From Candidatus Latescibacterota bacterium (lineage in GTDB: Bacteria > Latescibacterota > UBA2968), in assembly GCA_965222605.1 (NCBI GenBank), contig OZ244960.1, forward strand, positions 2,880,001 to 2,944,000: a stretch of DNA of 64,000 nucleotides, in the 5' to 3' direction. The notes beneath the pieces are model-generated. The model was not told where the DNA came from, did no database searches, and was given only the letters and a program-made list of their open reading frames with translations. This document shows, in pieces, positions 2,758 through 12,984 of the stretch; the stretch's first letter is position 1; each line of letters opens with the position of its first letter. The position numbers and the translations under genes are program-made.

Positions 2758-3162
2758 ATGGCCTCTTTCCAATTAGACATCGTAACACCCGAAAAAACCG
2801 TGTACTCTGGCGAAATTGTGCATTTTCAAGCGCCGGGAGTTGACGGCAGTTTTGGCGTACTGGCGCGCCACCAGCCCCTGCTGGCCGCACTCGGCATTGG
2901 TCGGGTCGGTCTCCGAGAAGCAGATGGCACCGAGCGCACCCTCGCCATCAGCGGTGGATTCGCCAATGTATCGGGTGACGGTGCAACAATCCTCGCAGAA
3001 GCAGCCGAGTTTGGCGATGAGATCGACATAGAACGCGCGCGCGCCGCACGAGATCGGGCACAAGAGCGATTGGACAACCGCACACCCGACGTAGATGTAG
3101 AACGCGCACAAACAGCACTGGCACGGGCGTTTATACGGCTGCGCGTGACAGGTGCTGAATAG
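2758..3162 (+). CDS. atpC: F1 ATP synthase subunit epsilon
   Basis: LDIVTPE, GSFGVLARHQP, ISGGF, IDIERA motifs; last gene of the atp operon. Confidence 0.96.
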   Translation: MASFQLDIVTPEKTVYSGEIVHFQAPGVDGSFGVLARHQPLLAALGIGRVGLREADGTERTLAISGGFANVSGDGATILAEAAEFGDEIDIERARAARDRAQERLDNRTPDVDVERAQTALARAFIRLRVTGAE

Positions 3163-3184
3163 TATTTTTAGAAATAGAAATGAG

Positions 3185-3219
3185 AAAGCACGCTCCGATT
3201 GATTAGAGCGTGCTTTTTT
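3185..3219 (+). terminator. Rho-independent terminator of the atp operon (type A, copy 1)
   Basis: aaagcacgctc...gagcgtgcttt stem followed by a T-run. Confidence 0.85.
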
Positions 3220-3236
3220 ATTTTTTTATCTGACCC

Positions 3237-3274
3237 ACGGTTCGTTGACACCTTTTTGGCTCTGGACTATATTG
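3237..3274 (+). promoter_or_regulatory. Sigma70 promoter, repeat copy 1
   Basis: TTGACA (3245-3250), 17 bp spacer, TATATT (3268-3273); near-identical blocks at ~6863, ~8220 and ~10608. Confidence 0.8.
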
Positions 3275-3334
3275 TGGATGATCGTGGGAGGGCAAGGGAG
3301 ATTGTATTCAGTATTGAAAGGATAAGAATTAAAC

Positions 3335-4360
3335 ATGACTGATGTTGCGCTGCGCGTACTCGTGACAGGTGCTGCGGGATTTATTGGATTTCATCTTTCC
3401 AAACTACTGCTCGAAATGGGTTATTCAGTAGTCGGATTGGACAATGTGAACGATTATTACAATACCCAGCTCAAAGAAGATCGCCTATCTATTCTAAAGC
3501 GGGAAGACGGATTCAAATTTGTTCGCATGCATCTCGAGGACGAAAAGGGAATCGCAGACCTTTTTCGCGCAGAGCATTTTTCTCATGTCATCAATCTCGC
3601 AGGTCAGACAGGCGTGCGTTACAGTCTGGAAAACCCTTTGGTTTATGTCAAAAGCAATGTGATGGGTTTTCTCAACATCCTGGAGGGATGTCGCCATTGC
3701 GATATCGAACATCTGGTCTATGCGTCGTCGAGTTCTGTTTATGGCTTGAACGCCACCACGCCTCATGGCGTCCGTCAAAACGTCGATCATCCGATCAGCT
3801 TGTACGCGGCGACAAAAAAATCAGATGAACTAATGGCGCATGTGTATAGCCATTTGCACGGCATTCCGACCACAGGATTGCGCTTTTTCTCTGTGTATGG
3901 ACCCTGGGGACGTCCGGATTTTGTCGCCTACTTGTGGACCAAAGCCATTTTGGAAGATCGACCGGTCAAAGTCTATAATCACGGCAAGATGCGTCGCAGT
4001 TTTACGTATGTCGGCGACATTGTCAAAGGGATAGTTCGCGTACTGTCAAATCCCGCAAAGCCAGATCCCGAGTGGACAGGACAATGTCCCGAACCGGGAT
4101 CGAGTTCCAGCCCCTATCGCATTTACAATATTGGCAATCCCAATGTCATAGAACTGGAGTATTTCCTCTCGCTATTGGAGGATTTATTGGGCAAAAAGGC
4201 TATCCGAAAAGATTTGCCCATGCAGCCCGGAGACGTACAGGATAATGCAGCAGATGTTTCGGAGCTAATGCGAGATGTGGGCTACAATCCCTCAACGCCC
4301 ATAGAAACAGGGCTTGCAAATTTTGTCGCGTGGTACAAGGACTATCACAATGTGAAGTAA
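3335..4360 (+). CDS. NAD-dependent epimerase, UDP-glucuronate 4-epimerase-like
   Basis: GAAGFIG Rossmann motif, YASSSSVYG, YAATKK catalytic YxxxK, RFFSVYGPWGRPD, PMQPGDV. Confidence 0.9.
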   Translation: MTDVALRVLVTGAAGFIGFHLSKLLLEMGYSVVGLDNVNDYYNTQLKEDRLSILKREDGFKFVRMHLEDEKGIADLFRAEHFSHVINLAGQTGVRYSLENPLVYVKSNVMGFLNILEGCRHCDIEHLVYASSSSVYGLNATTPHGVRQNVDHPISLYAATKKSDELMAHVYSHLHGIPTTGLRFFSVYGPWGRPDFVAYLWTKAILEDRPVKVYNHGKMRRSFTYVGDIVKGIVRVLSNPAKPDPEWTGQCPEPGSSSSPYRIYNIGNPNVIELEYFLSLLEDLLGKKAIRKDLPMQPGDVQDNAADVSELMRDVGYNPSTPIETGLANFVAWYKDYHNVK

Positions 4361-4380
4361 ATCGGAGAAACAGAAAGGAG

Positions 4381-4411
4381 AAAGCACGCTCTGTTTAGAG
4401 CGTGCTTTTTT
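4381..4411 (+). terminator. Rho-independent terminator (type A, copy 2)
   Basis: aaagcacgctct...agagcgtgcttttt; same stem and similar upstream purine tract as 3185-3219. Confidence 0.85.
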
Positions 4412-4643
4412 GTTTTCCTTTCAGGTCAAAACCCCAAGGTGGTATGGTGAAAGCTCAAGACGCATATAAGGAACAAATCTTCAGCCTATAAGTCTATGTT
4501 GTGGAAACAGATTACTTTGGGGAAATGATACATTAAGCAGATGATACAATGTATCCTTTAATGGCATTGTTCCAAACCAGATTGCCCTCTCCGCCTCTGA
4601 TGTACTCCTGTGGAATGCTGGCAGCCTTCCTTGAGGAGAAGAT

Positions 4644-5309
4644 ATGAAATACTTTATGAGTATCCTGGTCTTGTTGATAATGTCTTATTCTGCTCCTATT
4701 TTCGGACAGCACATCGTCGCTGTCCGGTGGGGTGGAAATATGACAAAAATCGGTGGTTTTGATCATCAGGGCACGCCGCGCAGAAGTATGAGGATAGGCG
4801 CCTCTGTAACCATTCCAATACAGAACCGCTTTAGCCTTCAAGCTCATGGCGACTATGTCCCAAAAGGAGCAAGAGAGGACGATTTTTATTATTATACCGG
4901 ATTATACATTGACTACATCGAACTTTCAGGATTGGGAGTTTTTACAGTCTTCGCTCCTTCTCGGGGACCCTCTTTGTCTATACTCGCCGGGCCTACGATA
5001 GCATTCAAGATCAAAAACCGAGGAGAAGAAATACTGGCAAAAAGATACGGGCAGGGCCAAAATCGCTTTGAATTCAAATCTATGGACTTTGGTTTTGCTG
5101 GCGGGATCGGTACACAGATAGCAATTTTCAAACCATGGATAGTCACAACAGAGATTCTATACACCAGGAGCATCCGATCTATCAACAAAACCACTTTCTA
5201 TATCATAGATTTTGATTCTCACACAGCAGAAAAACGTGGCCTGATGAACCACGCCCTTTCCTTCTCTGTTGGGCTCGGTTTTTCTTATGGCAGAAGAACG
5301 GGAGGTTAA
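4644..5309 (+). CDS. Outer-membrane beta-barrel / porin-family protein
   Basis: N-terminal signal peptide, alternating beta-strand pattern, DFGFAGGIG, C-terminal FSVGLGFSY strand; GAGGAG RBS. Confidence 0.65.
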   Translation: MKYFMSILVLLIMSYSAPIFGQHIVAVRWGGNMTKIGGFDHQGTPRRSMRIGASVTIPIQNRFSLQAHGDYVPKGAREDDFYYYTGLYIDYIELSGLGVFTVFAPSRGPSLSILAGPTIAFKIKNRGEEILAKRYGQGQNRFEFKSMDFGFAGGIGTQIAIFKPWIVTTEILYTRSIRSINKTTFYIIDFDSHTAEKRGLMNHALSFSVGLGFSYGRRTGG

Positions 5310-5310
5310 A

Positions 5311-6717
5311 ATGAACTCTGTCATGTCAACATATATTCGCAGGATCCTTGTGGTAGCACTGACTACTGGTGTGATGGGGAGCCCTATATGGGGGCAGGAG
5401 ATTGAGACGGCTGTAACCTCATTTGTGATAGGCGGCGTGACACTCCAGGAAGATGTGAAGAATCCACCCGTGCCGAGTGGCATGCAGAGATTTGAAATCA
5501 CAATGAATAAACCAGTCGTAACTTTTTACGAATTGAGGGAACCTGAAACTTTGCCCTATTTCGATGGCGACAGCATCACCCAGGTAACTATCACTAAGTA
5601 CTTTGATATTGACCGAGATGTTATTTCCTATCCTATTGACCTGCTTTTAGATATCACAATCGCGCAGGATCTGGCCATTAGTCCAGATAGCTTGACATTA
5701 ACAGGCACCATCAGCCTGCCAAAAGGTGCCACCTATCAAGTCCTTTTTGGTGAGTCAGACATAGATCCTATTGATGAACAGCAGCAGTATTTTTTTGGGA
5801 CCGCAGAACTGCCGAATGCTGTTGTTTCTGGTGTAGGCATTGTGGACACCTTACCTGATGGTTTTACAGTAAGCGGTGATCGTTCTGCTGGGGCTGCGCT
5901 CATTGACCCTGAGCGATTTAGACATATTTTCCCATTACTCGAAGAATTCGATGATTTTATTCTATGGTCTTTTGTCCGCATTACCGATTCCAATGAACAA
6001 ATGACATTTGATTTGAAACATGTGCCGGATGGATCTTACGCGATATTGATGGCACATCGTGCAGTGAACGAACAAACCGGCCAGGAGATTCAGATATTTG
6101 GGTATAAAGGGGTCAATCTCTTGACGGGCGAGGTCGATCCTACAGAATTGGTTCAGGTCGTCGATGGAAAAAGCGTGACAGATTTACAAATAGTGTTGCA
6201 AATACCACCAGAAGAACCAGATCCAGTAATTTCTGAAATTCTGGAGGTCAAGGTTCAAAGCGTCAATGCTGAAACAAAATCATTTGTCATTCAACCTGGC
6301 AACCAACAGATACAGATAGATGCTTCAGAGGCCCTGACAGTTTCCCCAGGCCAAATAAGTGCTGAAGAGATCCTCAAGATCTTTTTGTTTTATAATCCTG
6401 ATGATTTCGCACGCATCATTTTTCCTATTACCGACCTGATGGTAGGAGATACCGTTTCTCTCCTGGGAACATACACTTCTGAAACGATGTTCCAGGCCTT
6501 TATAGTAATCCGCCATGAATCGCCTCTGGCACGGAATGGTGATATGGATAGGGATGGGGATGTCGATTTCTCTGATTTTCTACTTTTTACTTCTGCCTTT
6601 GGCACGATGGAAGGAGAACTGGAATACAATCCCTCGGCAGATTTGGACGGGGATGGTGCGGTCGTATTCTCAGACTTTCTGATATTTGCCAGTGCCTTTG
6701 GCAAACCCGTGGGTTAG
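5311..6717 (+). CDS. Secreted protein with C-terminal duplicated dockerin/EF-hand-like repeat
   Basis: GGAGG RBS before ATG 5311; signal peptide; DMDRDGDVDFSDFLLFTSAFG and DLDGDGAVVFSDFLIFASAFG. Confidence 0.75.
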   Translation: MNSVMSTYIRRILVVALTTGVMGSPIWGQEIETAVTSFVIGGVTLQEDVKNPPVPSGMQRFEITMNKPVVTFYELREPETLPYFDGDSITQVTITKYFDIDRDVISYPIDLLLDITIAQDLAISPDSLTLTGTISLPKGATYQVLFGESDIDPIDEQQQYFFGTAELPNAVVSGVGIVDTLPDGFTVSGDRSAGAALIDPERFRHIFPLLEEFDDFILWSFVRITDSNEQMTFDLKHVPDGSYAILMAHRAVNEQTGQEIQIFGYKGVNLLTGEVDPTELVQVVDGKSVTDLQIVLQIPPEEPDPVISEILEVKVQSVNAETKSFVIQPGNQQIQIDASEALTVSPGQISAEEILKIFLFYNPDDFARIIFPITDLMVGDTVSLLGTYTSETMFQAFIVIRHESPLARNGDMDRDGDVDFSDFLLFTSAFGTMEGELEYNPSADLDGDGAVVFSDFLIFASAFGKPVG

Positions 6718-6789
6718 GAGTATGGTATGACACACAATAAACATCCCAGAGGCTGACACCCTGGGCTGTTTTCTATTTCTCTAAAATGA

Positions 6790-6822
6790 AAGAGCGAGTC
6801 CTTTTTGGCTCGCTCTCTTTTT
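6790..6822 (+). terminator. Rho-independent terminator
   Basis: agagcgag...ctcgctct stem plus T-run. Confidence 0.7.
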
Positions 6823-6904
6823 ATTAAAATACTTCGTTGTACTGCGCGGGGCATAATTTTATACGGCTCGTTGACACCCCTTTGGGTTTGGGCTATATTG
6901 CAAA
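6821..6904 (+). promoter_or_regulatory. Sigma70 promoter, repeat copy 2 (with upstream ttattaaaatacttcgttgt...gcggggcata block)
   Basis: TTGACA 6871-6876, 17 bp spacer, TATATT 6894-6899; ~75 bp similar to 10566-10640. Confidence 0.8.
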
Positions 6905-6934
6905 ATAAGAAGTGTGAATTGGAGGATTTAAGTC

Positions 6935-7195
6935 ATGAATACTTATCGCAGGCGTCTTGTAGTCCAAGACCCCAAACAGATTGTGCTTTCTGATGTTCCT
7001 TTTCAAACAGGTCAAGAAGTGGAAATTACCCTGCGTTCAATAGAGCAGCCCACAGTAGAGCGGAAGAATGAGTTACGCGCCCTGTTGAAGAAGACGCAGT
7101 CACTCTCTCAGATTCAAACTCTCACAGAAGAGGATATTCTCGCTGAAATTGAAGCCTATCGGAATTTTTCGTGTCAGCTAACTGCTGCTCGCTGA
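6935..7195 (+). CDS. Small hypothetical protein, probable orphan type II antitoxin
   Basis: GGAGG RBS; LSDVPFQTGQEVEI N-terminus and EEDILAEIEAYR C-terminus resemble antitoxins that usually precede PIN toxins; no toxin follows. Confidence 0.55.
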   Translation: MNTYRRRLVVQDPKQIVLSDVPFQTGQEVEITLRSIEQPTVERKNELRALLKKTQSLSQIQTLTEEDILAEIEAYRNFSCQLTAAR

Positions 7196-7247
7196 CCACT
7201 ATCCTACAGTTACATATGATATGAACTATAAAACAAAAGGCAGTACG

Positions 7248-7562
7248 ATGCTGGACCAATCAACCCTGAACGACATCATCCGGCGCATTGTAGAGGTCGC
7301 TCATCCAGAGAAGATCATTCTCTTTGGGTCCGCCGCGAGGGGCGACTTGAACCGCCATAGCGACGTTGATCTGCTCGTCGTAAAGGACGACAGTGATTCG
7401 TGGACTGTTATGGGAGACATCTACGGAAACCTGCGCGGCATTGGCGTAGCAGTCGATGCAATCGTGGTCACGCCAGCGCAGATGGAACGTTACAAGGATA
7501 GTCACGCACTGGTGATCAAGCCCGCACTGCAAGAGGGAAGGGTCATATATGAAGCAGCCTGA
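7248..7562 (+). CDS. Minimal nucleotidyltransferase (MNT) antitoxin
   Basis: KIILFGSAARGD...SDVDLLVV motif. Confidence 0.85.
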   Translation: MLDQSTLNDIIRRIVEVAHPEKIILFGSAARGDLNRHSDVDLLVVKDDSDSWTVMGDIYGNLRGIGVAVDAIVVTPAQMERYKDSHALVIKPALQEGRVIYEAA

Positions 7563-7683
7563 ACGCTTCCCGCCCGACGACCCTCGGGAATGGCTGAACC
7601 GCGCCAGAAGCAATCTGGTTCGCGCAAAAAACCGAATTCCCGGTGCCTATCTCGAAGACTTGTGTTTCGATGCCCAACAGGCG
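7549..7683 (+). pseudogene. HEPN toxin, 3'-truncated
   Basis: REWLNRARSNL...LCFDAQQA is the N-terminal half of HEPN_MNT proteins; the sequence then switches to a promoter-repeat fragment. Confidence 0.75.
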
Positions 7684-7704
7684 TTGGATTTGGGCTATAT
7701 TGCA
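7684..7704 (+). repeat. Partial promoter repeat (copy 3; -10 half only)
   Basis: ttggatttgggctatattgca matches ttgggtttgggctatattgca of copy 2; TTGACA missing. Confidence 0.7.
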
Positions 7705-7768
7705 CAAAATATCATCCGCAGAAGAAGGATCCTATACATTGACAGAGACACTATACGGAGACGCTGTG

Positions 7769-8140
7769 ATGACACAGGAACAAAATGAGAAAGTCCAAAC
7801 CATTGTCCGTGAGACCACTGCGGAACGTTTCTCGTCGGATGAGTTCGTGTTCGACCCCATTGTGGTGGTACCGACTGTTGACGAATACGGTTCTGACGCC
7901 AGCGGCGAAACGTATCTTCGCATCATTATTGTCTTCGATGGCGATCAGAAGCAACTCGACTCCAGTTGGACATCCAGCTTCATCAGACGCATTCGCCCGA
8001 AGCTGATTAAGGCAGGCATAGAAGAGTTCCCCAGCCCGTCATGGGTTGAGAAATCTGAGTGGTGGAGTCTGTATCCCAAATGGCGACAACAACACCCAGA
8101 GGTAACTATTGAAACCGCCCGTTACGTGGTAGGTCGATAA
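7769..8140 (+). CDS. Hypothetical protein
   Basis: ORF with GGAG RBS before GTG/ATG (7766/7769), followed by a terminator. Confidence 0.6.
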   Translation: MTQEQNEKVQTIVRETTAERFSSDEFVFDPIVVVPTVDEYGSDASGETYLRIIIVFDGDQKQLDSSWTSSFIRRIRPKLIKAGIEEFPSPSWVEKSEWWSLYPKWRQQHPEVTIETARYVVGR

Positions 8141-8155
8141 ATCTCGGTACAATAT

Positions 8156-8184
8156 AAAAAGCCCTCACATTTTGGGGGCTTTTG
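8156..8184 (+). terminator. Rho-independent terminator (type B, copy 1)
   Basis: aaaagccctc acatttt gggggctttt; recurs at 10656-10685. Confidence 0.75.
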
Positions 8185-8187
8185 TAT

Positions 8188-8258
8188 ATTACTTCGTAAT
8201 GCGCAGGATGTAATATAAGACGGTTCGTTGACACCTTTTTGGCTTTGGGCTATATTGC
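8188..8258 (+). promoter_or_regulatory. Sigma70 promoter, repeat copy 4
   Basis: TTGACA 8228-8233, 17 bp spacer, TATATT 8251-8256; preceded by a ttacttcgt block. Confidence 0.8.
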
Positions 8259-8313
8259 TTGAAAGACCGCTCTAATTTTAAGAAATACGACCTTAGATAG
8301 GAATGACCCGAGA

Positions 8314-9273
8314 GTGAATGCAGGTAATTGGACATTTATTGATTTGTTTGCTGGTATTGGCGGGATGCGTATTCCATTTGAAGACTTAGGTGGCACCTGT
8401 GTGTTTAGTTCTGAGTGGGACGAACCGGCTCAACAGACCTATTATCATAACTTTGGTGAAATGCCAGCGGGCGACATTACGCAAATTGAGGAAGCTACGA
8501 TTCCGGAACACGATATTTTATTGGCGGGGTTCCCTTGCCAACCGTTTAGTATTATCGGCAACAAACAGGGGTTTGAAGATACGCGGGGCACGTTATTCTT
8601 TGATATAGAACGGATTTTGAGAGCAAAGCAACCACAGGCATTTCTTCTTGAAAACGTAAGACAGTTGGTGAGCCACGATAGTGGCAGAACTTTTCGGGTA
8701 ATCTGCGAACATCTTCAAGAACTGGGGTACACCATATACCATAAAATTTTGAACGCACTCGATTTCGGGGTGCCTCAAAAGAGAGAACGGATTTTTATTA
8801 TTGGATTTCGAGACCCCATCGCATTCACTTTTCCGACCGGTAACGGGGATTATAAGCCCCTATCAGAGATTATCGAGCCAGATAGCGAAGTAGATCCAAG
8901 TTTGTTTGCATCGGAGAGAATCCGAAAATCGCGTTTTGAAAAATGCAAAATTGAACCGTTTTATCCCTCTATCTGGCATGAAAATAAAGGCGGTAATATA
9001 TCAGTATTGCCGTTTTCATGTGCTTTGCGAGCCGGGGCATCTTATAACTATCTTTTGGTAAATGGCATTCGTCGCCTTTCAGGGCGAGAACTCTTGCGGC
9101 TACAGGGTTTCCCCGAAGATTTTAAGATTGTCGTAAATATCACACAACTTCGTAAGCAGACCGGAAATAGCGTGGCAATTCCCGTAATTCGCGCGATTGC
9201 CGAGAAAATGCAAGAAGCCTTAATACAACGAAAACGCCCAGAACTTCCCGCGAAACAACTCACACTTTTATAG
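8314..9273 (+). CDS. DNA (cytosine-5) methyltransferase
   Basis: FIDLFAGIGG (motif I), GFPCQPFS (IV), LLENV (VI), PQKRERIF (VIII), GNSV (X). Confidence 0.95.
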   Translation: MNAGNWTFIDLFAGIGGMRIPFEDLGGTCVFSSEWDEPAQQTYYHNFGEMPAGDITQIEEATIPEHDILLAGFPCQPFSIIGNKQGFEDTRGTLFFDIERILRAKQPQAFLLENVRQLVSHDSGRTFRVICEHLQELGYTIYHKILNALDFGVPQKRERIFIIGFRDPIAFTFPTGNGDYKPLSEIIEPDSEVDPSLFASERIRKSRFEKCKIEPFYPSIWHENKGGNISVLPFSCALRAGASYNYLLVNGIRRLSGRELLRLQGFPEDFKIVVNITQLRKQTGNSVAIPVIRAIAEKMQEALIQRKRPELPAKQLTLL

Positions 9274-9294
9274 AAACATCAGGGCTTATACTCA

Positions 9295-10353
9295 ATGGAC
9301 AATCGTGCTGCAAAACGAAGCCTGGATACCGTGATCAAAAAAGCCCGTATCCATCTCTACAAACCGATACAGATTGCAGAGATACTCCACAGGGATAGAG
9401 TGGTCGGCGACATTGAGCTTAAAGATTTGGAAACTTATCGAACGCAGTCAAGAAAATGGCGCGATGAGGTTTGTATGAGAATTTTGGGAAGATCTTCGAC
9501 CTCAAGCGCGCGATTCCAGGACAATCTTTTTGATTTAAATGCGACACCTCCACCCGTTCTGATGACATTGGGAGAGATAAATCGCAGATATAACGGCGCA
9601 GTAGAAGCCTACATTTACGAGGCTTTTAGACAGAAACACGCCCAAATGTCGAAATGGTTAGATTATGTGAGATATTCAGACCGAACGAGTTTCAAATTGC
9701 AGAACTTTATTGCGGGTTTCCGACGTGACCCCGGTTTGGCGAGAAGCGTCGATAAAATTTTTGAAATTGTGGTCTATGCCTTGTTCTCAACGCTTTTAGA
9801 AGCTCTTGAAGTAAAAGTCGGTGTGAAGATTGAGAATATTGAAAACGCGATTCTCCGGGAGTTTTCCGACTTCACGGAAAAAGTACTCGGATTGTCTCAA
9901 GCAATGCCCGAGACGTATCAAGATGCTAAGGTCTATAGAGTTGGCGTGACGAACGCCGCTGATAGAGGGCTTGATATGTGGGCGAATTTTGGCGTCGCTA
10001 TTCAAATAAAGCATTTATCCCTGACACCCGAAATGGCAGACGATATTTCTAATAACATTTCAGCCGATAGAATCATCATTGTTTGTAAAGCGTGCGAGAA
10101 AGACGTTCTAATTTCGGTATTGCGACAATTTGGTGGTGCAAACAGAATTCAAAGCGTAATAACAGAAGACGAGCTTGATGTATGGTACGAAAAAGCCTTA
10201 CAGGGAAGATCGGCAACACTAATAGGCGACAAAGTCCTGGAAAGATTGGAGAACGAAATCACAGTTGAATTTCCTTCCACGGTCGAGTTTGATAGGTTTT
10301 TTAAGTCGCGGAGCTACCATCAGTTGCCAATTCTCGATATTTGGCGCGATTGA
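9295..10353 (+). CDS. Type II restriction endonuclease, HaeII/NgoI-like
   Basis: LDTVIKKARIHLYKPIQIAEIL and GVTNAADRGLDMWANFG-AIQIKHL resemble the HaeII family; paired with a C5 MTase. Confidence 0.75.
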   Translation: MDNRAAKRSLDTVIKKARIHLYKPIQIAEILHRDRVVGDIELKDLETYRTQSRKWRDEVCMRILGRSSTSSARFQDNLFDLNATPPPVLMTLGEINRRYNGAVEAYIYEAFRQKHAQMSKWLDYVRYSDRTSFKLQNFIAGFRRDPGLARSVDKIFEIVVYALFSTLLEALEVKVGVKIENIENAILREFSDFTEKVLGLSQAMPETYQDAKVYRVGVTNAADRGLDMWANFGVAIQIKHLSLTPEMADDISNNISADRIIIVCKACEKDVLISVLRQFGGANRIQSVITEDELDVWYEKALQGRSATLIGDKVLERLENEITVEFPSTVEFDRFFKSRSYHQLPILDIWRD

Positions 10354-10407
10354 ACCTTTGTTGCCAGACCAACTCGGGATCATCCTATGTGGCCTGCCCA
10401 AGAATCA

Positions 10408-10565
10408 GTTACGCATGTCTCGCGTTTCTGTCATGCTGAGGAAGCCGTCAGGCTGACGAAGCATCTTTTACTTCTGAAGGTAATAGGTGATAGTAGATTC
10501 TTCGACTCCGCTGCGCTCCGCTCAGAATGACAGGCGCAGGATATTGTGCCTCTGCGTAACGTCAG
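10408..10565. mobile_element. MITE/REP-like palindromic element
   Basis: Terminal inverted gttacgca ... tgcgtaac; internal long hairpin ctgtcatgctgag...gaagcatct ... agattcttcg...ctcagaatgacag. Confidence 0.6.
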
Positions 10566-10642
10566 TTATTAAAATGCTTCGTTGTGCTGCGCGGGGCATA
10601 AGCTAATACGGCTCGTTGACACCCTTTTGGGTTTGGGCTATT
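10566..10642 (+). promoter_or_regulatory. Promoter repeat copy 5 (-10 degraded, no downstream gene)
   Basis: ttattaaaatgcttcgttgtgctgcgcggggcata...cggctcgTTGACAcccttttgggtttgggctattcgg. Confidence 0.7.
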
Positions 10643-10655
10643 CGGAATAAAATCA

Positions 10656-10685
10656 AAAAGCCCCCACATTATGCGGGGGCTTTTG
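10656..10685. terminator. Terminator (type B, copy 2), possibly bidirectional
   Basis: aaaaagccccc acattatgc gggggcttttg. Confidence 0.75.
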
Positions 10686-10724
10686 TAGATTACTGCATCA
10701 TTCACGATGGATATCTTTTTCCAA

Positions 10725-11243
10725 CTACTGAGTCTTTACTGGCAACGTAAGTCGCATCCTGAATGTGGTGCTTTTGTCCTCGACGCTAAGATCAGTGCGG
10801 ATTTTTGGATTGTCTTTATTTTTGATTGATATATTGCAAGGGGCTGTAAATACCACCTGTCGGTGGGCTTGTTGGTTGATCTCAACGAGACCGGGAAAAA
10901 TATTAATCACTGCGCGTTGATTAATCTCGCGAACACTGTCAAAGGAACCGTACTCGCTTATGACGCTCTCAGCCAGGCCGCCCACTCGTTTACAGGTCTC
11001 GACAGCGGCTTTCACAGAGGAATATTGCTGCTTAACAGTAAATTTGACAAACTTTTGATCATTTTCAAACCTTGCAAAAGCATCCAAACCCCACAACTTC
11101 CCCTTATAGCTCCCCTTATCTGGTCCCACTTCTACTTTTTTCCATGTTTCCTCTGTTTCTTCTGTTTCCTCTGCTCGGATGGATGACGTATGCGACATCA
11201 CCCAAAAGAAACATATTGTTGCTAAAATCACACAAGCCCTCAT
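10725..11243 (-). CDS. Secreted hypothetical protein
   Basis: Signal-peptide-like N-terminus, EETEETEET microrepeat, GAGG RBS; directly follows nadE. Confidence 0.6.
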   Translation of the reverse strand: MRACVILATICFFWVMSHTSSIRAEETEETEETWKKVEVGPDKGSYKGKLWGLDAFARFENDQKFVKFTVKQQYSSVKAAVETCKRVGGLAESVISEYGSFDSVREINQRAVINIFPGLVEINQQAHRQVVFTAPCNISIKNKDNPKIRTDLSVEDKSTTFRMRLTLPVKTQ

Positions 11244-11256
11244 AGCTTCCTCGCAC

Positions 11257-12984
11257 TTAATATTCTCGACACCGATTCGTAATAGGCAATCGCCTATCGC
11301 GACCGAATGCGCGGGGTGTAATCTTGATACCTGGCGGTGCCTGGCGGCGTTTGTATTCGTTGATATCTACCGTGCGGATAACCCGCGTGACGAGTTCCTC
11401 GTCATAGCCCAGCGCGATAATATCTTGCAAACTCGCATCGTCCTCCACATACGCTTTGAGAATCGGATCCAGCACCGGATAAGGAGGCAAGCTATCCGTA
11501 TCTTTCTGATCATCGCGCAACTCAGCCGTAGGAGGTCGCTCGATAATCGAAACGGGAATAACGGGATGATCAGACAGACCATTGCGATAATGCGCCAGAT
11601 CATAAACAAGCGTCTTGTAAATATCTTTAATAACCGCAAACCCACCAGCCATATCCCCGTAAAGCGTGGCATAGCCCATACTCAACTCGCTCTTATTCCC
11701 CGGCGCAAGCACGAGCGCGCGGAACTTATTGGCAAGCGCCATCAGCAAAGTCCCCCGAACACGCGGCTGGATATTCTCCTCCGCAGTATCAGAAGGCAAA
11801 TCGCCAAACTCGTCGGCAAGAAGACCCAGATATTGGTCGAACAACGCCTGAATCGGCAACGTCAGAATGCGAATATCGAGATTGCCCGCCATCTGCAGGG
11901 CGTCATTAAACGTGCCCTCTGACGAATACTGGGTAGGCATCGTCACACACACCACATTCTCTCTCCCCAGCGCATCGTGGGCAACAGCCGTGACAAGCGC
12001 CGAGTCAATCCCGCCGGACAACCCGATGAAAACCTTCTCAAATCCATTCTTCAAAACATAGTCGCGCGTACCCAGAACAAGCGCATCGTAAATATTTTTG
12101 AGGCGCTCATCTGGACGAGGAAAATCTGGTCTCTCAGGCGGAGAAAGACATACAGATTTGGGTTTCAGATCGGGCAGATCAATAGCGATAGGAGAAGAAA
12201 CATCGCGTTTTTCCTTGCGCCGACGCGAATCGTGCAGGCGGTTGCGAAAAACAGCCTCAACATCAACATCCGCCACCAGCAGGTCTTCCTCAAACCGGGG
12301 CGCCCGCGCAATAACGCGTCCTTCTTGATCGACAATCAGGCTACCCCCATCAAAAATCAATTCATCCTGCCCACCGACGAGATTGCAAAAAGCGAGAACA
12401 GCGCTGTTATCAGTCGCACGCGTAGCAATCATCTGCTCGCGCAACAACTCTTTGCCATCGTGGAAAGGTGAGGAGGAAATATTGATAAGCACCTCGGCAT
12501 CGCCGGCAAGTGCTTGCTCCCTGGCGGGACCGCCGGGATACCAGATATCCTCGCAGATCGTAACCCCAAAAGAAACCCCATTGAGGCGGTACACACCCGA
12601 GGTCTTGCCAGATTGGAAATAGCGGTCTTCGTCAAAGACGCCGTAATTGGGCAAATAGGTCTTGTGATAAACATCGATCAAGTGCCCGTCGCAAGCAATA
12701 GCTGCGGCATTGTAGATATCGTCGTGACGATCCACAAATCCGAAAATTGCAGCAACACCCTGCGTCGCCCGAACGAGTTCGTCCAGCACACTGAGGTTGG
12801 ATTGGATAAACCGGGGCTTAAAAAGCAAATCTTCGGGCGGATAGCCCGGAATCGCGAGCTCGGGAAAAACAACAATATGCGCCCCCAAATCGCGTGCTCT
12901 GTGAATATGGTCGAGAATTTTATCACGGTTGCCCGCAAGATCACCTACGGTGACATTGATTTGCGATAGGGCAAGGCGAATCAC
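11257..12984 (-). CDS. nadE: Glutamine-dependent NAD+ synthetase
   Basis: N-terminal CN-hydrolase domain (FPEL, YHK, ICED) plus GLSGGIDS, GNKSE, YATLYGD, PPTAEL, EYKRRQAPPG. Confidence 0.95.
   Translation of the reverse strand: MIRLALSQINVTVGDLAGNRDKILDHIHRARDLGAHIVVFPELAIPGYPPEDLLFKPRFIQSNLSVLDELVRATQGVAAIFGFVDRHDDIYNAAAIACDGHLIDVYHKTYLPNYGVFDEDRYFQSGKTSGVYRLNGVSFGVTICEDIWYPGGPAREQALAGDAEVLINISSSPFHDGKELLREQMIATRATDNSAVLAFCNLVGGQDELIFDGGSLIVDQEGRVIARAPRFEEDLLVADVDVEAVFRNRLHDSRRRKEKRDVSSPIAIDLPDLKPKSVCLSPPERPDFPRPDERLKNIYDALVLGTRDYVLKNGFEKVFIGLSGGIDSALVTAVAHDALGRENVVCVTMPTQYSSEGTFNDALQMAGNLDIRILTLPIQALFDQYLGLLADEFGDLPSDTAEENIQPRVRGTLLMALANKFRALVLAPGNKSELSMGYATLYGDMAGGFAVIKDIYKTLVYDLAHYRNGLSDHPVIPVSIIERPPTAELRDDQKDTDSLPPYPVLDPILKAYVEDDASLQDIIALGYDEELVTRVIRTVDINEYKRRQAPPGIKITPRAFGRDRRLPITNRCREY

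Follow-up and report, generated by a model that had tools for sequence, protein, structure and literature searches.

The stretch analysed here (the window) comprises 64,000 nucleotides of the 6.34-Mb genome of a Candidatus Latescibacterota bacterium, denoted G000; other G-numbers denote the genomes of its relatives. Between atpC and nadE it carries a repeat of about 120 bp, made up of a terminator-like hairpin (T3), a linker and a promoter block, which stands before toxin-antitoxin (TA)-type and restriction-modification (R-M) modules. It is probable (about 0.6) that this repeat acts as a chromosomal scaffold resembling the promoter/stem-loop (PeSL) cassettes of phages, in which the repeat bounds the modules, RecA-type recombination with the DNA of relatives reshuffles them, and deletions erode them. 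The reading is carried by the repeat itself, its restriction to one lineage, empty and filled alleles, tandem units, reciprocal combinations of flank and cargo, and staggered junctions. Promoters and terminators were called by sequence pattern only and are predicted ones throughout. An earlier note on the same letters (the original prediction) had described a cassette-like array with five block copies downstream of the atp operon, and regarded it as the best candidate there for an undescribed gene-capture system.

The repeat and its alleles between atpC and nadE

The block was confirmed as a real repeat, although only three of the five flagged copies are full promoters. Full copies of the form TTGACA-17-TATATT have their -35 elements starting at 3245, 6871 and 8228; the copy at 10608 keeps the -35 element and spacer with a broken -10 element, and 7684-7703 is a -10 half only, fused to a truncated HEPN gene. 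Both pairs of duplicated terminators that had been pointed out (3185/4381 and 8156/10656) were confirmed. The hairpin T3 at 6791-6816, which had not been flagged, belongs to the repeat in relatives, so that the repeat unit consists of the T3-bearing part (6781-6820), the linker and the promoter. Over 76 nt, 6821-6896 and 10566-10641 are 92% identical, and the value for 8178-8253 is 71%. Three further full copies were found elsewhere in G000, at 511365(-), 1130618(+) and 2375009(-), and head an MNT-HEPN pair, a gene for a 126-aa protein and a pair that is AbiE-like by eye. G000 contains 90 sites of the TTGACN-17-TANANT type, among which the six full block copies share 13-17 of 17 spacer positions and the remaining 84 match at no more than 9 of 17; the block copies thus share descent rather than chance resemblance.

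The atpC-nadE intervals were fetched from genomes of the same genus, and 12 close ones, G000 among them, were complete. These range from 2.8 to 46.9 kb, so the expectation that gene content varies between relatives was borne out. Of the 12 intervals, 11 hold the epimerase and 10 the dockerin-domain gene; since these genes are near-constant, both belong to the backbone and are not the cassettes for which they had been taken. The block directly precedes only 3 of 13 atp-linked epimerases. The cassette-like part is the distal one, from T3 to the gene of the 172-aa hypothetical protein. No block was found between atpC and nadE in the deeper genomes G001, G010, G016 and G018.

Empty and filled sites both exist in the distal part. 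In G006 and G014 a single T3-linker-block unit abuts the 172-aa gene, with no cargo (an empty site), while in G017 the R-M pair of the window sits between two units at this place. Partial or remnant forms of the unit were found in G003, G007 and G011, and none in G013. In G032 four units stand in tandem, with 84-90% identity over about 125 bp; T3 precedes the block in every one of them, and each has different cargo: a 126-aa gene and an HNH nuclease in the first; 86-aa, 123-aa and DUF433 genes in the second; a methylase and a truncated endonuclease in the third; and 123-aa, DUF433 and DUF5615 genes in the fourth.

Compared with these alleles, the array of G000 is a partly eroded version, with a half block left by deletion in the HEPN gene and a repetitive extragenic palindromic (REP)-like repeat at the place of T3. 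The leader and gene 3' of the half block follow a full block in G002, G015, G031 and G032. The right-hand repeat of G000 is without its terminator; a whole or partial repeat copy abuts the same flank as 10566-10641 in relatives, and T3 stands 3' of the R-M module in G017, in G032 and in metagenome run X5.

Cargo and distribution of the block

A collection of 77 block sites was compiled, with T3 standing before the block at 17. A TA-type or R-M unit is headed by 39 of the 77, of which 16 were assigned by a Pfam match of the first gene's family (methylase 5, MNT 5, DUF433 5, Phd 1) and 23 by a partner gene or likeness (126-aa 13, 86-aa 5, 123-aa 5). Eight sites are empty. Other block-headed genes include the epimerase, a heparinase-like gene, an AAA ATPase and, in G016, a phosphoglycerate mutase. 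Searches were also started from the cargo genes instead of the block, which removes the sampling bias. The block precedes the methylase in all five atpC-nadE occurrences, the 86-aa gene in 5 of 8 occurrences, and lies near 13 of 14 near-full copies of the 126-aa gene.

The exact 31-nt degenerate pattern matched 28 stretches in the genome collection, all 28 titled Latescibacterota, so that the block is a precise marker for unannotated TA and defence genes in this group; it had no match in viral contigs. With two mismatches allowed, the pattern was found in 18 of 21 genomes of the genus (including G000) and in 2 of 3 genomes of one sister genus, with no match in 7 other genomes of the family, in 22 of the other family or with a reversed control pattern. 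In the sister genus three block copies again head TA-like genes, and the upstream DNA is unrelated. With 0-9 copies per genome, dispersed over several hotspots, the block is a low-copy repeat restricted to this lineage. A search across the genome and its relatives, as originally proposed, thus places the block well beyond the atp operon, and cargo also occurs elsewhere without it.

The only block of G016 (locus L052, position 3017) precedes the phosphoglycerate mutase, which has no such block in G000, and joins two regions that lie 210 kb apart in G000. The promoter may have originated with this copy, or a rearrangement may have taken place at it.

Proposed exchange at the repeat and competing explanations

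The T3-type flank (17 sites) meets six downstream classes, two of which are the empty flank, so that it joins five or more distinct downstream sequences. Both the T3 type and a second flank type meet the methylase and also the 86-aa gene, which closes a reciprocal cycle of flank and cargo; at thresholds of 0.70, 0.75 and 0.80, 3, 1 and 1 such cycles were obtained. Mean identity of the repeats was 0.885 within genomes (n = 8 pairs) and 0.869 between genomes (n = 112), and the nearest neighbour lay in another genome for 9 of 10 repeats of multi-copy genomes. Since divergence is about the same within and between genomes and the neighbours lie elsewhere, the repeats point to arrival from relatives, not to local duplication.

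Breakpoints of homology were counted after exclusion of G003, G004, G006 and G008, whose intervals are split or rearranged. The block zone takes 40 of 556 alignment ends, where the expectation is 7.7 overall and 16.6 for intergenic ends (a 2.4-fold enrichment over the intergenic expectation); these ends are not independent of one another and include divergence breaks. A breakpoint was found at 25 of 29 blocks in the 12 intervals. Shared sequence ends upstream of the block at 0-3, 9-12, 20-27, 46-54 and about 90 nt; downstream ends are also scattered and cluster near +31. Staggered ends of this kind are better explained by exchange and deletion through homology than by cutting at a single site. 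The genes recA and comEC are present.

Under the RecA-type reading, a rare illegitimate join would first attach a module to the promoter. A relative's repeat-module-repeat segment could then pair out of register with a resident repeat, by which the module would be gained together with its own repeat copy. Exchange between neighbouring repeats, or deletions at microhomology, would later remove or truncate modules. Antitoxins and methylases would need continued expression, so that the promoter core would be kept while its flanks erode.

Several results weigh against this reading. Breakpoints were predicted to coincide with the repeats, and the 25 of 29 blocks and one cycle stable at all thresholds agree with this; 516 of the 556 breakpoints (93%) nevertheless lie outside the block, which accounts for only about 7%. 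Only one reciprocal cycle is robust, and the finest flank classes gave none. Identity between repeats of one genome is 86-93%, their longest exact runs measure 15-43 bp, and the longest run between block copies of G000 is 25 bp; short, imperfect repeats of that kind are a poor substrate for RecA. Of 14 gene-length occurrences of the methylase only 5 have a block, each of them between atpC and nadE, and the block-less cargo copies examined lie at 11 other loci, at none of which a block was found. Other routes of movement thus exist for the cargo, whose coupling to the block is secondary. Alternative joints at module ends were found in runs X3, X5 and X10 (X5 joins the R-M end to T3); no circle junction was among the run-contig joints listed, which are all but 10 of those recorded, contigs being prone to drop rare variants. 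RNA runs contained no more than 7-13% of the sequence words, and no transcript start was seen. The block thus explains a minority of the turnover of the interval, which limits its weight.

A more far-reaching version is doubtful. In it, Latescibacterota species would pass addiction and defence modules to one another, either as small circles or in linear form, by way of an integrase-free, lineage-specific chromosomal cassette platform. Every such module would bring along one repeat (terminator, linker and promoter), could enter at any copy already present, at several hotspots, and would be expressed at once; if this were true, an integron-like function would arise from host recombination and a portable promoter alone.

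The rival that survives best, unlikely as we judge it, treats the promoter as a passenger. An old TA operon promoter would hitch-hike with its cargo and the repeat would be a by-product instead of a crossover site; double recombination in the core genes on either side would drive turnover, and one-sided homology, illegitimate joins and deletions would give rise to the arrays. The 93% of breakpoints lying elsewhere agree with this, as do the blocks fused into the middles of genes at several sites (7684 in the window), the sister genus, in which the block precedes the same MNT-HEPN unit with unrelated upstream DNA, and the proximity of the block to 13 of 14 copies of the 126-aa gene, which suggests a home operon. 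Both routes are described in the available portions of published accounts (PMC5635113, PMC5361080). A passive promoter would not readily produce the four G032 units, each ending in the same terminator-linker-promoter, nor the exact filled and empty pair of G017 versus G006 and G014, nor the reciprocal cycle. The RecA-type reading and this rival can act together.

A trans-acting site-specific recombinase (tyrosine, serine or IS110-type) using the block as an attachment site in the manner of an integron is very improbable. The ten tyrosine-recombinase-domain matches and four IS110 copies of G000, a G031 block with an IS110 some 60 bp upstream, and the many downstream junctions at about +31 would suit it. 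The original statement that no integrase or attC-like site is visible holds, however: no integron integrase was found above the cut-off in G000 (best TIGR02249 score 88 bits versus 265), no resolvase-family protein was matched there, the nearest tyrosine recombinase lies about 145 kb from the locus, and linker and block fold no better than shuffled sequences on either strand (z -0.5 to 1.2). The IS110 copies of G000 each lie at least 177 kb from any block, and the left ends are staggered. IS110 was also rejected as a driver on its own account, the ends and insertion sites of the element not coinciding with the repeat; two of the four copies are inserted in the REP-like repeat family. A role of Xer/dif was rejected as well (the locus is about 160 kb from the GC-skew minimum and far from the maximum, and a loose dif pattern was unmatched there), as was a phage origin, viral contigs having given 0 exact matches. 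No evidence was obtained for a dedicated capture enzyme. Six Rfam matches, all far below the gathering score, lay mostly at terminator hairpins.

Little credence can be given to an ordinary regulon promoter, where one regulator bound to the spacer would control stress and defence genes jointly, so that likeness would reflect regulation and not mobility. The cargo is functionally coherent across two genera, and likeness within the 17-nt spacer far exceeds that at other promoter-like sites. Inspection revealed no dyad symmetry, however, and in a cross-genus orthologous pair 12 of 17 spacer positions are identical, no better than the 74% of the coding region. The likeness also reaches into terminator, linker and leader, and the copy before the phosphoglycerate mutase of G016 is lacking before that gene in G000.

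Misassembly of strain variants is almost certainly not the explanation: the genome record gives 5.4% contamination and no single run contig covers the whole stretch, but seven long contigs of run X1 within 2973-11413 are identical to the window, one covering the junction of dockerin-domain gene, T3 and block, and the single-contig genomes G015, G017, G031 and G032 show the same kind of array. Because X1 may be the source sample, independent assembly support comes from these four genomes.

Known systems, features and minor observations

The PeSL cassettes of T4-type phages are promoter-terminator units of about 100 bp with filled and empty pairs and mini-circles (PMC2839356). As far as the available text of the PeSL papers goes (PMC2839356, PMC4122927), the likeness comprises a sigma-70-like promoter with a terminator hairpin beside non-core genes in a hypervariable region, two-copy filled (G017, G032) versus one-copy empty (G006, G014) alleles, and the lack of an identified dedicated recombinase in either system. 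The repeat described here is chromosomal, occurs in Latescibacterota with no match in viral contigs, has 0-9 copies per genome, and carries largely TA-type and R-M cargo where that of the PeSLs consists of ORFans. Mini-circles have been demonstrated for PeSLs, whereas the Latescibacterota repeat is known from sequence alone. The analogy originally drawn with PeSLs thus fits in its composite unit and its filled and empty alleles; by this comparison the Latescibacterota element appears to work like a PeSL, but is not one, nor an integron.

Four other comparisons were made, the first three as far as the available parts of the sources reach. R-M insertion with long target duplication (PMC2853133) resembles the G017 case, in which the R-M pair stands alone between direct repeats longer than 30 bp without a mobility gene. 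G017 versus G006 and G014 shows what that study uses as its criterion, namely an R and M insert shorter than 20 kb, a duplication longer than 30 bp and no integrase or tRNA. The repeats of that study were 44-49 bp, nearly identical and genome-unique in both H. influenzae cases, while those described here are about 120 bp, about 87-90% alike, reused by unrelated modules and promoter-bearing. The two G017 repeats are not near-identical: neither is among the other's three nearest, and the downstream repeat shares 97% identity with a copy from G015. The CUP regulon of IncN plasmids (PMC5371602) likewise has co-oriented promoter repeats heading operons and recombination that rearranges the region; it differs in being plasmid-borne and defined by ArdK control, whereas no dyad was seen and no regulator site identified here. 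Recombinase-free hotspots (PMC5635113) and the arrays of immunity genes of the Vibrio cholerae type VI secretion system, formed by sequential displacement (PMC5361080), share a variable block between core genes without an integrase, orphan antitoxin-like remnants and the presence of a competence gene. Their models need no internal repeat, whereas a terminator-promoter repeat bounds part of the cargo here.

Chromosomal integrons and clusters of attC sites lacking an integrase (CALINs) hold co-oriented arrays of TA-type and R-M cargo between repeats. The present array differs from them in having no IntI, no attC-like hairpin, a predicted promoter per unit and staggered junctions.

No description of the repeat, of a chromosomal PeSL-like array or of a Latescibacterota case was found in the literature searched, with most subscription papers and supplements outside the search. 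The principle has already been published, both for PeSLs and for R-M insertion with long target duplication, so the claim of an undescribed gene-capture system is not upheld: no dedicated enzyme is indicated and the mechanism is known in principle. Chromosomal defence hotspots without an integrase are numerous; at the present locus, empty, singly filled and four-unit alleles bounded by the 120-bp repeat are available in complete genomes, which makes the PeSL idea testable on a chromosome.

The features of the interval are listed in Table 1. The gene labels originally given hold, the products being assigned here as epimerase, outer-membrane beta-barrel and dockerin proteins, nucleotidyltransferase, HEPN fragment, C5 methylase and HaeII-family endonuclease, those of the beta-barrel and dockerin proteins by matches below the cut-off.

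Table 1 Features of the atpC-nadE interval in the window, with strand and supporting remarks
Feature	Position	Strand	Remarks
atpC, left conserved anchor	2758..3162	+	Open reading frame; matched in 18/18 same-genus genomes drawn, one via block only
T1, terminator-like hairpin 3' of atpC	3185..3216	+	Kept after atpC in close relatives
Promoter block, full, before epimerase	3237..3274	+	Gained/lost allele
NAD-dependent epimerase, backbone	3335..4360	+	PF01370
T2, terminator-like hairpin, T1 paralogue	4381..4408	+	Followed by block and other cargo in G004, G005, G008
Outer-membrane beta-barrel-like protein	4644..5309	+	Semi-conserved, no block; PF13568 below cut-off; cluster of 5
Dockerin-domain protein, backbone	5311..6717	+	Left wall of distal array; PF00404 below cut-off
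T3, terminator-like hairpin with A-rich lead	6781..6820	+	First part of repeat
Linker between T3 and promoter	6821..6862	+	Middle part of repeat; no hairpin as single-stranded DNA
Promoter block, full	6863..6900	+	
86-aa antitoxin-like protein	6935..7195	+	No Pfam above cut-off; PIN partner in G009, G014, G031
MNT-type nucleotidyltransferase, antitoxin-like	7221..7562	+	PF18765, PF01909; MntA model below cut-off
HEPN gene, 5' fragment	7549..7683	+	Ends at half block; PF05168 positions 2-37 only
Block, -10 half	7684..7703	+	Deletion remnant
123-aa hypothetical protein	7769..8140	+	First gene of two-gene unit in relatives; in 11/21 genomes
T4a, bidirectional terminator-like hairpin	8156..8183	.	
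Promoter block, full	8220..8257	+	Heads R-M pair
C5 DNA methyltransferase, type II	8314..9273	+	PF00145; PADLOC MTase_II
HaeII-family restriction endonuclease	9295..10353	+	PF09554; PADLOC REase_II
REP-like palindromic repeat, unrelated	10408..10533	.	Occupies the place of T3 in relatives
Linker and block with broken -10	10566..10641	+	Terminal, cargo-less
T4b, bidirectional terminator-like hairpin	10656..10684	.	Same place in G031, G032
172-aa hypothetical protein	10725..11243	-	Right wall of array; no Pfam or NCBIfam match
nadE, right conserved anchor	11257..12984	-	NF010588 above cut-off; 18/18 same-genus genomes drawn

The nearest atlas cluster of the 86-aa protein carries the name DUF104, which is a lead only. 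For the 123-aa protein no Pfam, PADLOC or NCBIfam match was found and its atlas clusters are unnamed; the partner of its gene in relatives is HEPN-like by eye only. The REP-like repeat has 16 loci in G000 and very high depth in metagenome runs.

Copies of the same methylase without a block were located at L106-L108 (G002, G005 and G008; with endonuclease), L115 (G001) and L116 (G016); one block-less methylase site lies about 14 kb upstream of atpC and is empty in G000. Block-headed TA-type modules also occur among tandem leucine-rich-repeat genes at L041 (G004), L049 (G014) and L053 (G031), and the terminator of these leucine-rich-repeat genes resembles T3. In three of the deeper genomes the interval holds, in place of the array, giant reverse-strand open reading frames of about 4,000-10,900 aa (L010/L022 in G010, L015/L023 in G016, L017/L025 in G018).

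At G000:C1:2998752-2998992 (-), about 115 kb from the atp operon, the 3' part of atpC recurs in degenerate form (79%), near a fragment that is also found beside atpC in G031. A small gene headed by the block, with a degenerate atpC tail and T1 at its end, occurs in G002 and G014, before the epimerase in one case and after it in the other.

Among the promoter-like sites of G000, those at C1 1060121, 3954834 and 4472978 (+), and partially that at 3226133 (+), have a spacer with a GAAC-N4-GTTC-like palindrome, which we take to resemble a Firmicutes-type LexA box. A second promoter-like family with about 15 sites in G000, for example 233447(+), 2013149(+), 2853831(-) and 5910692(-), has a common spacer ending in CATAAGT or similar, and is possibly a regulon or another portable promoter.

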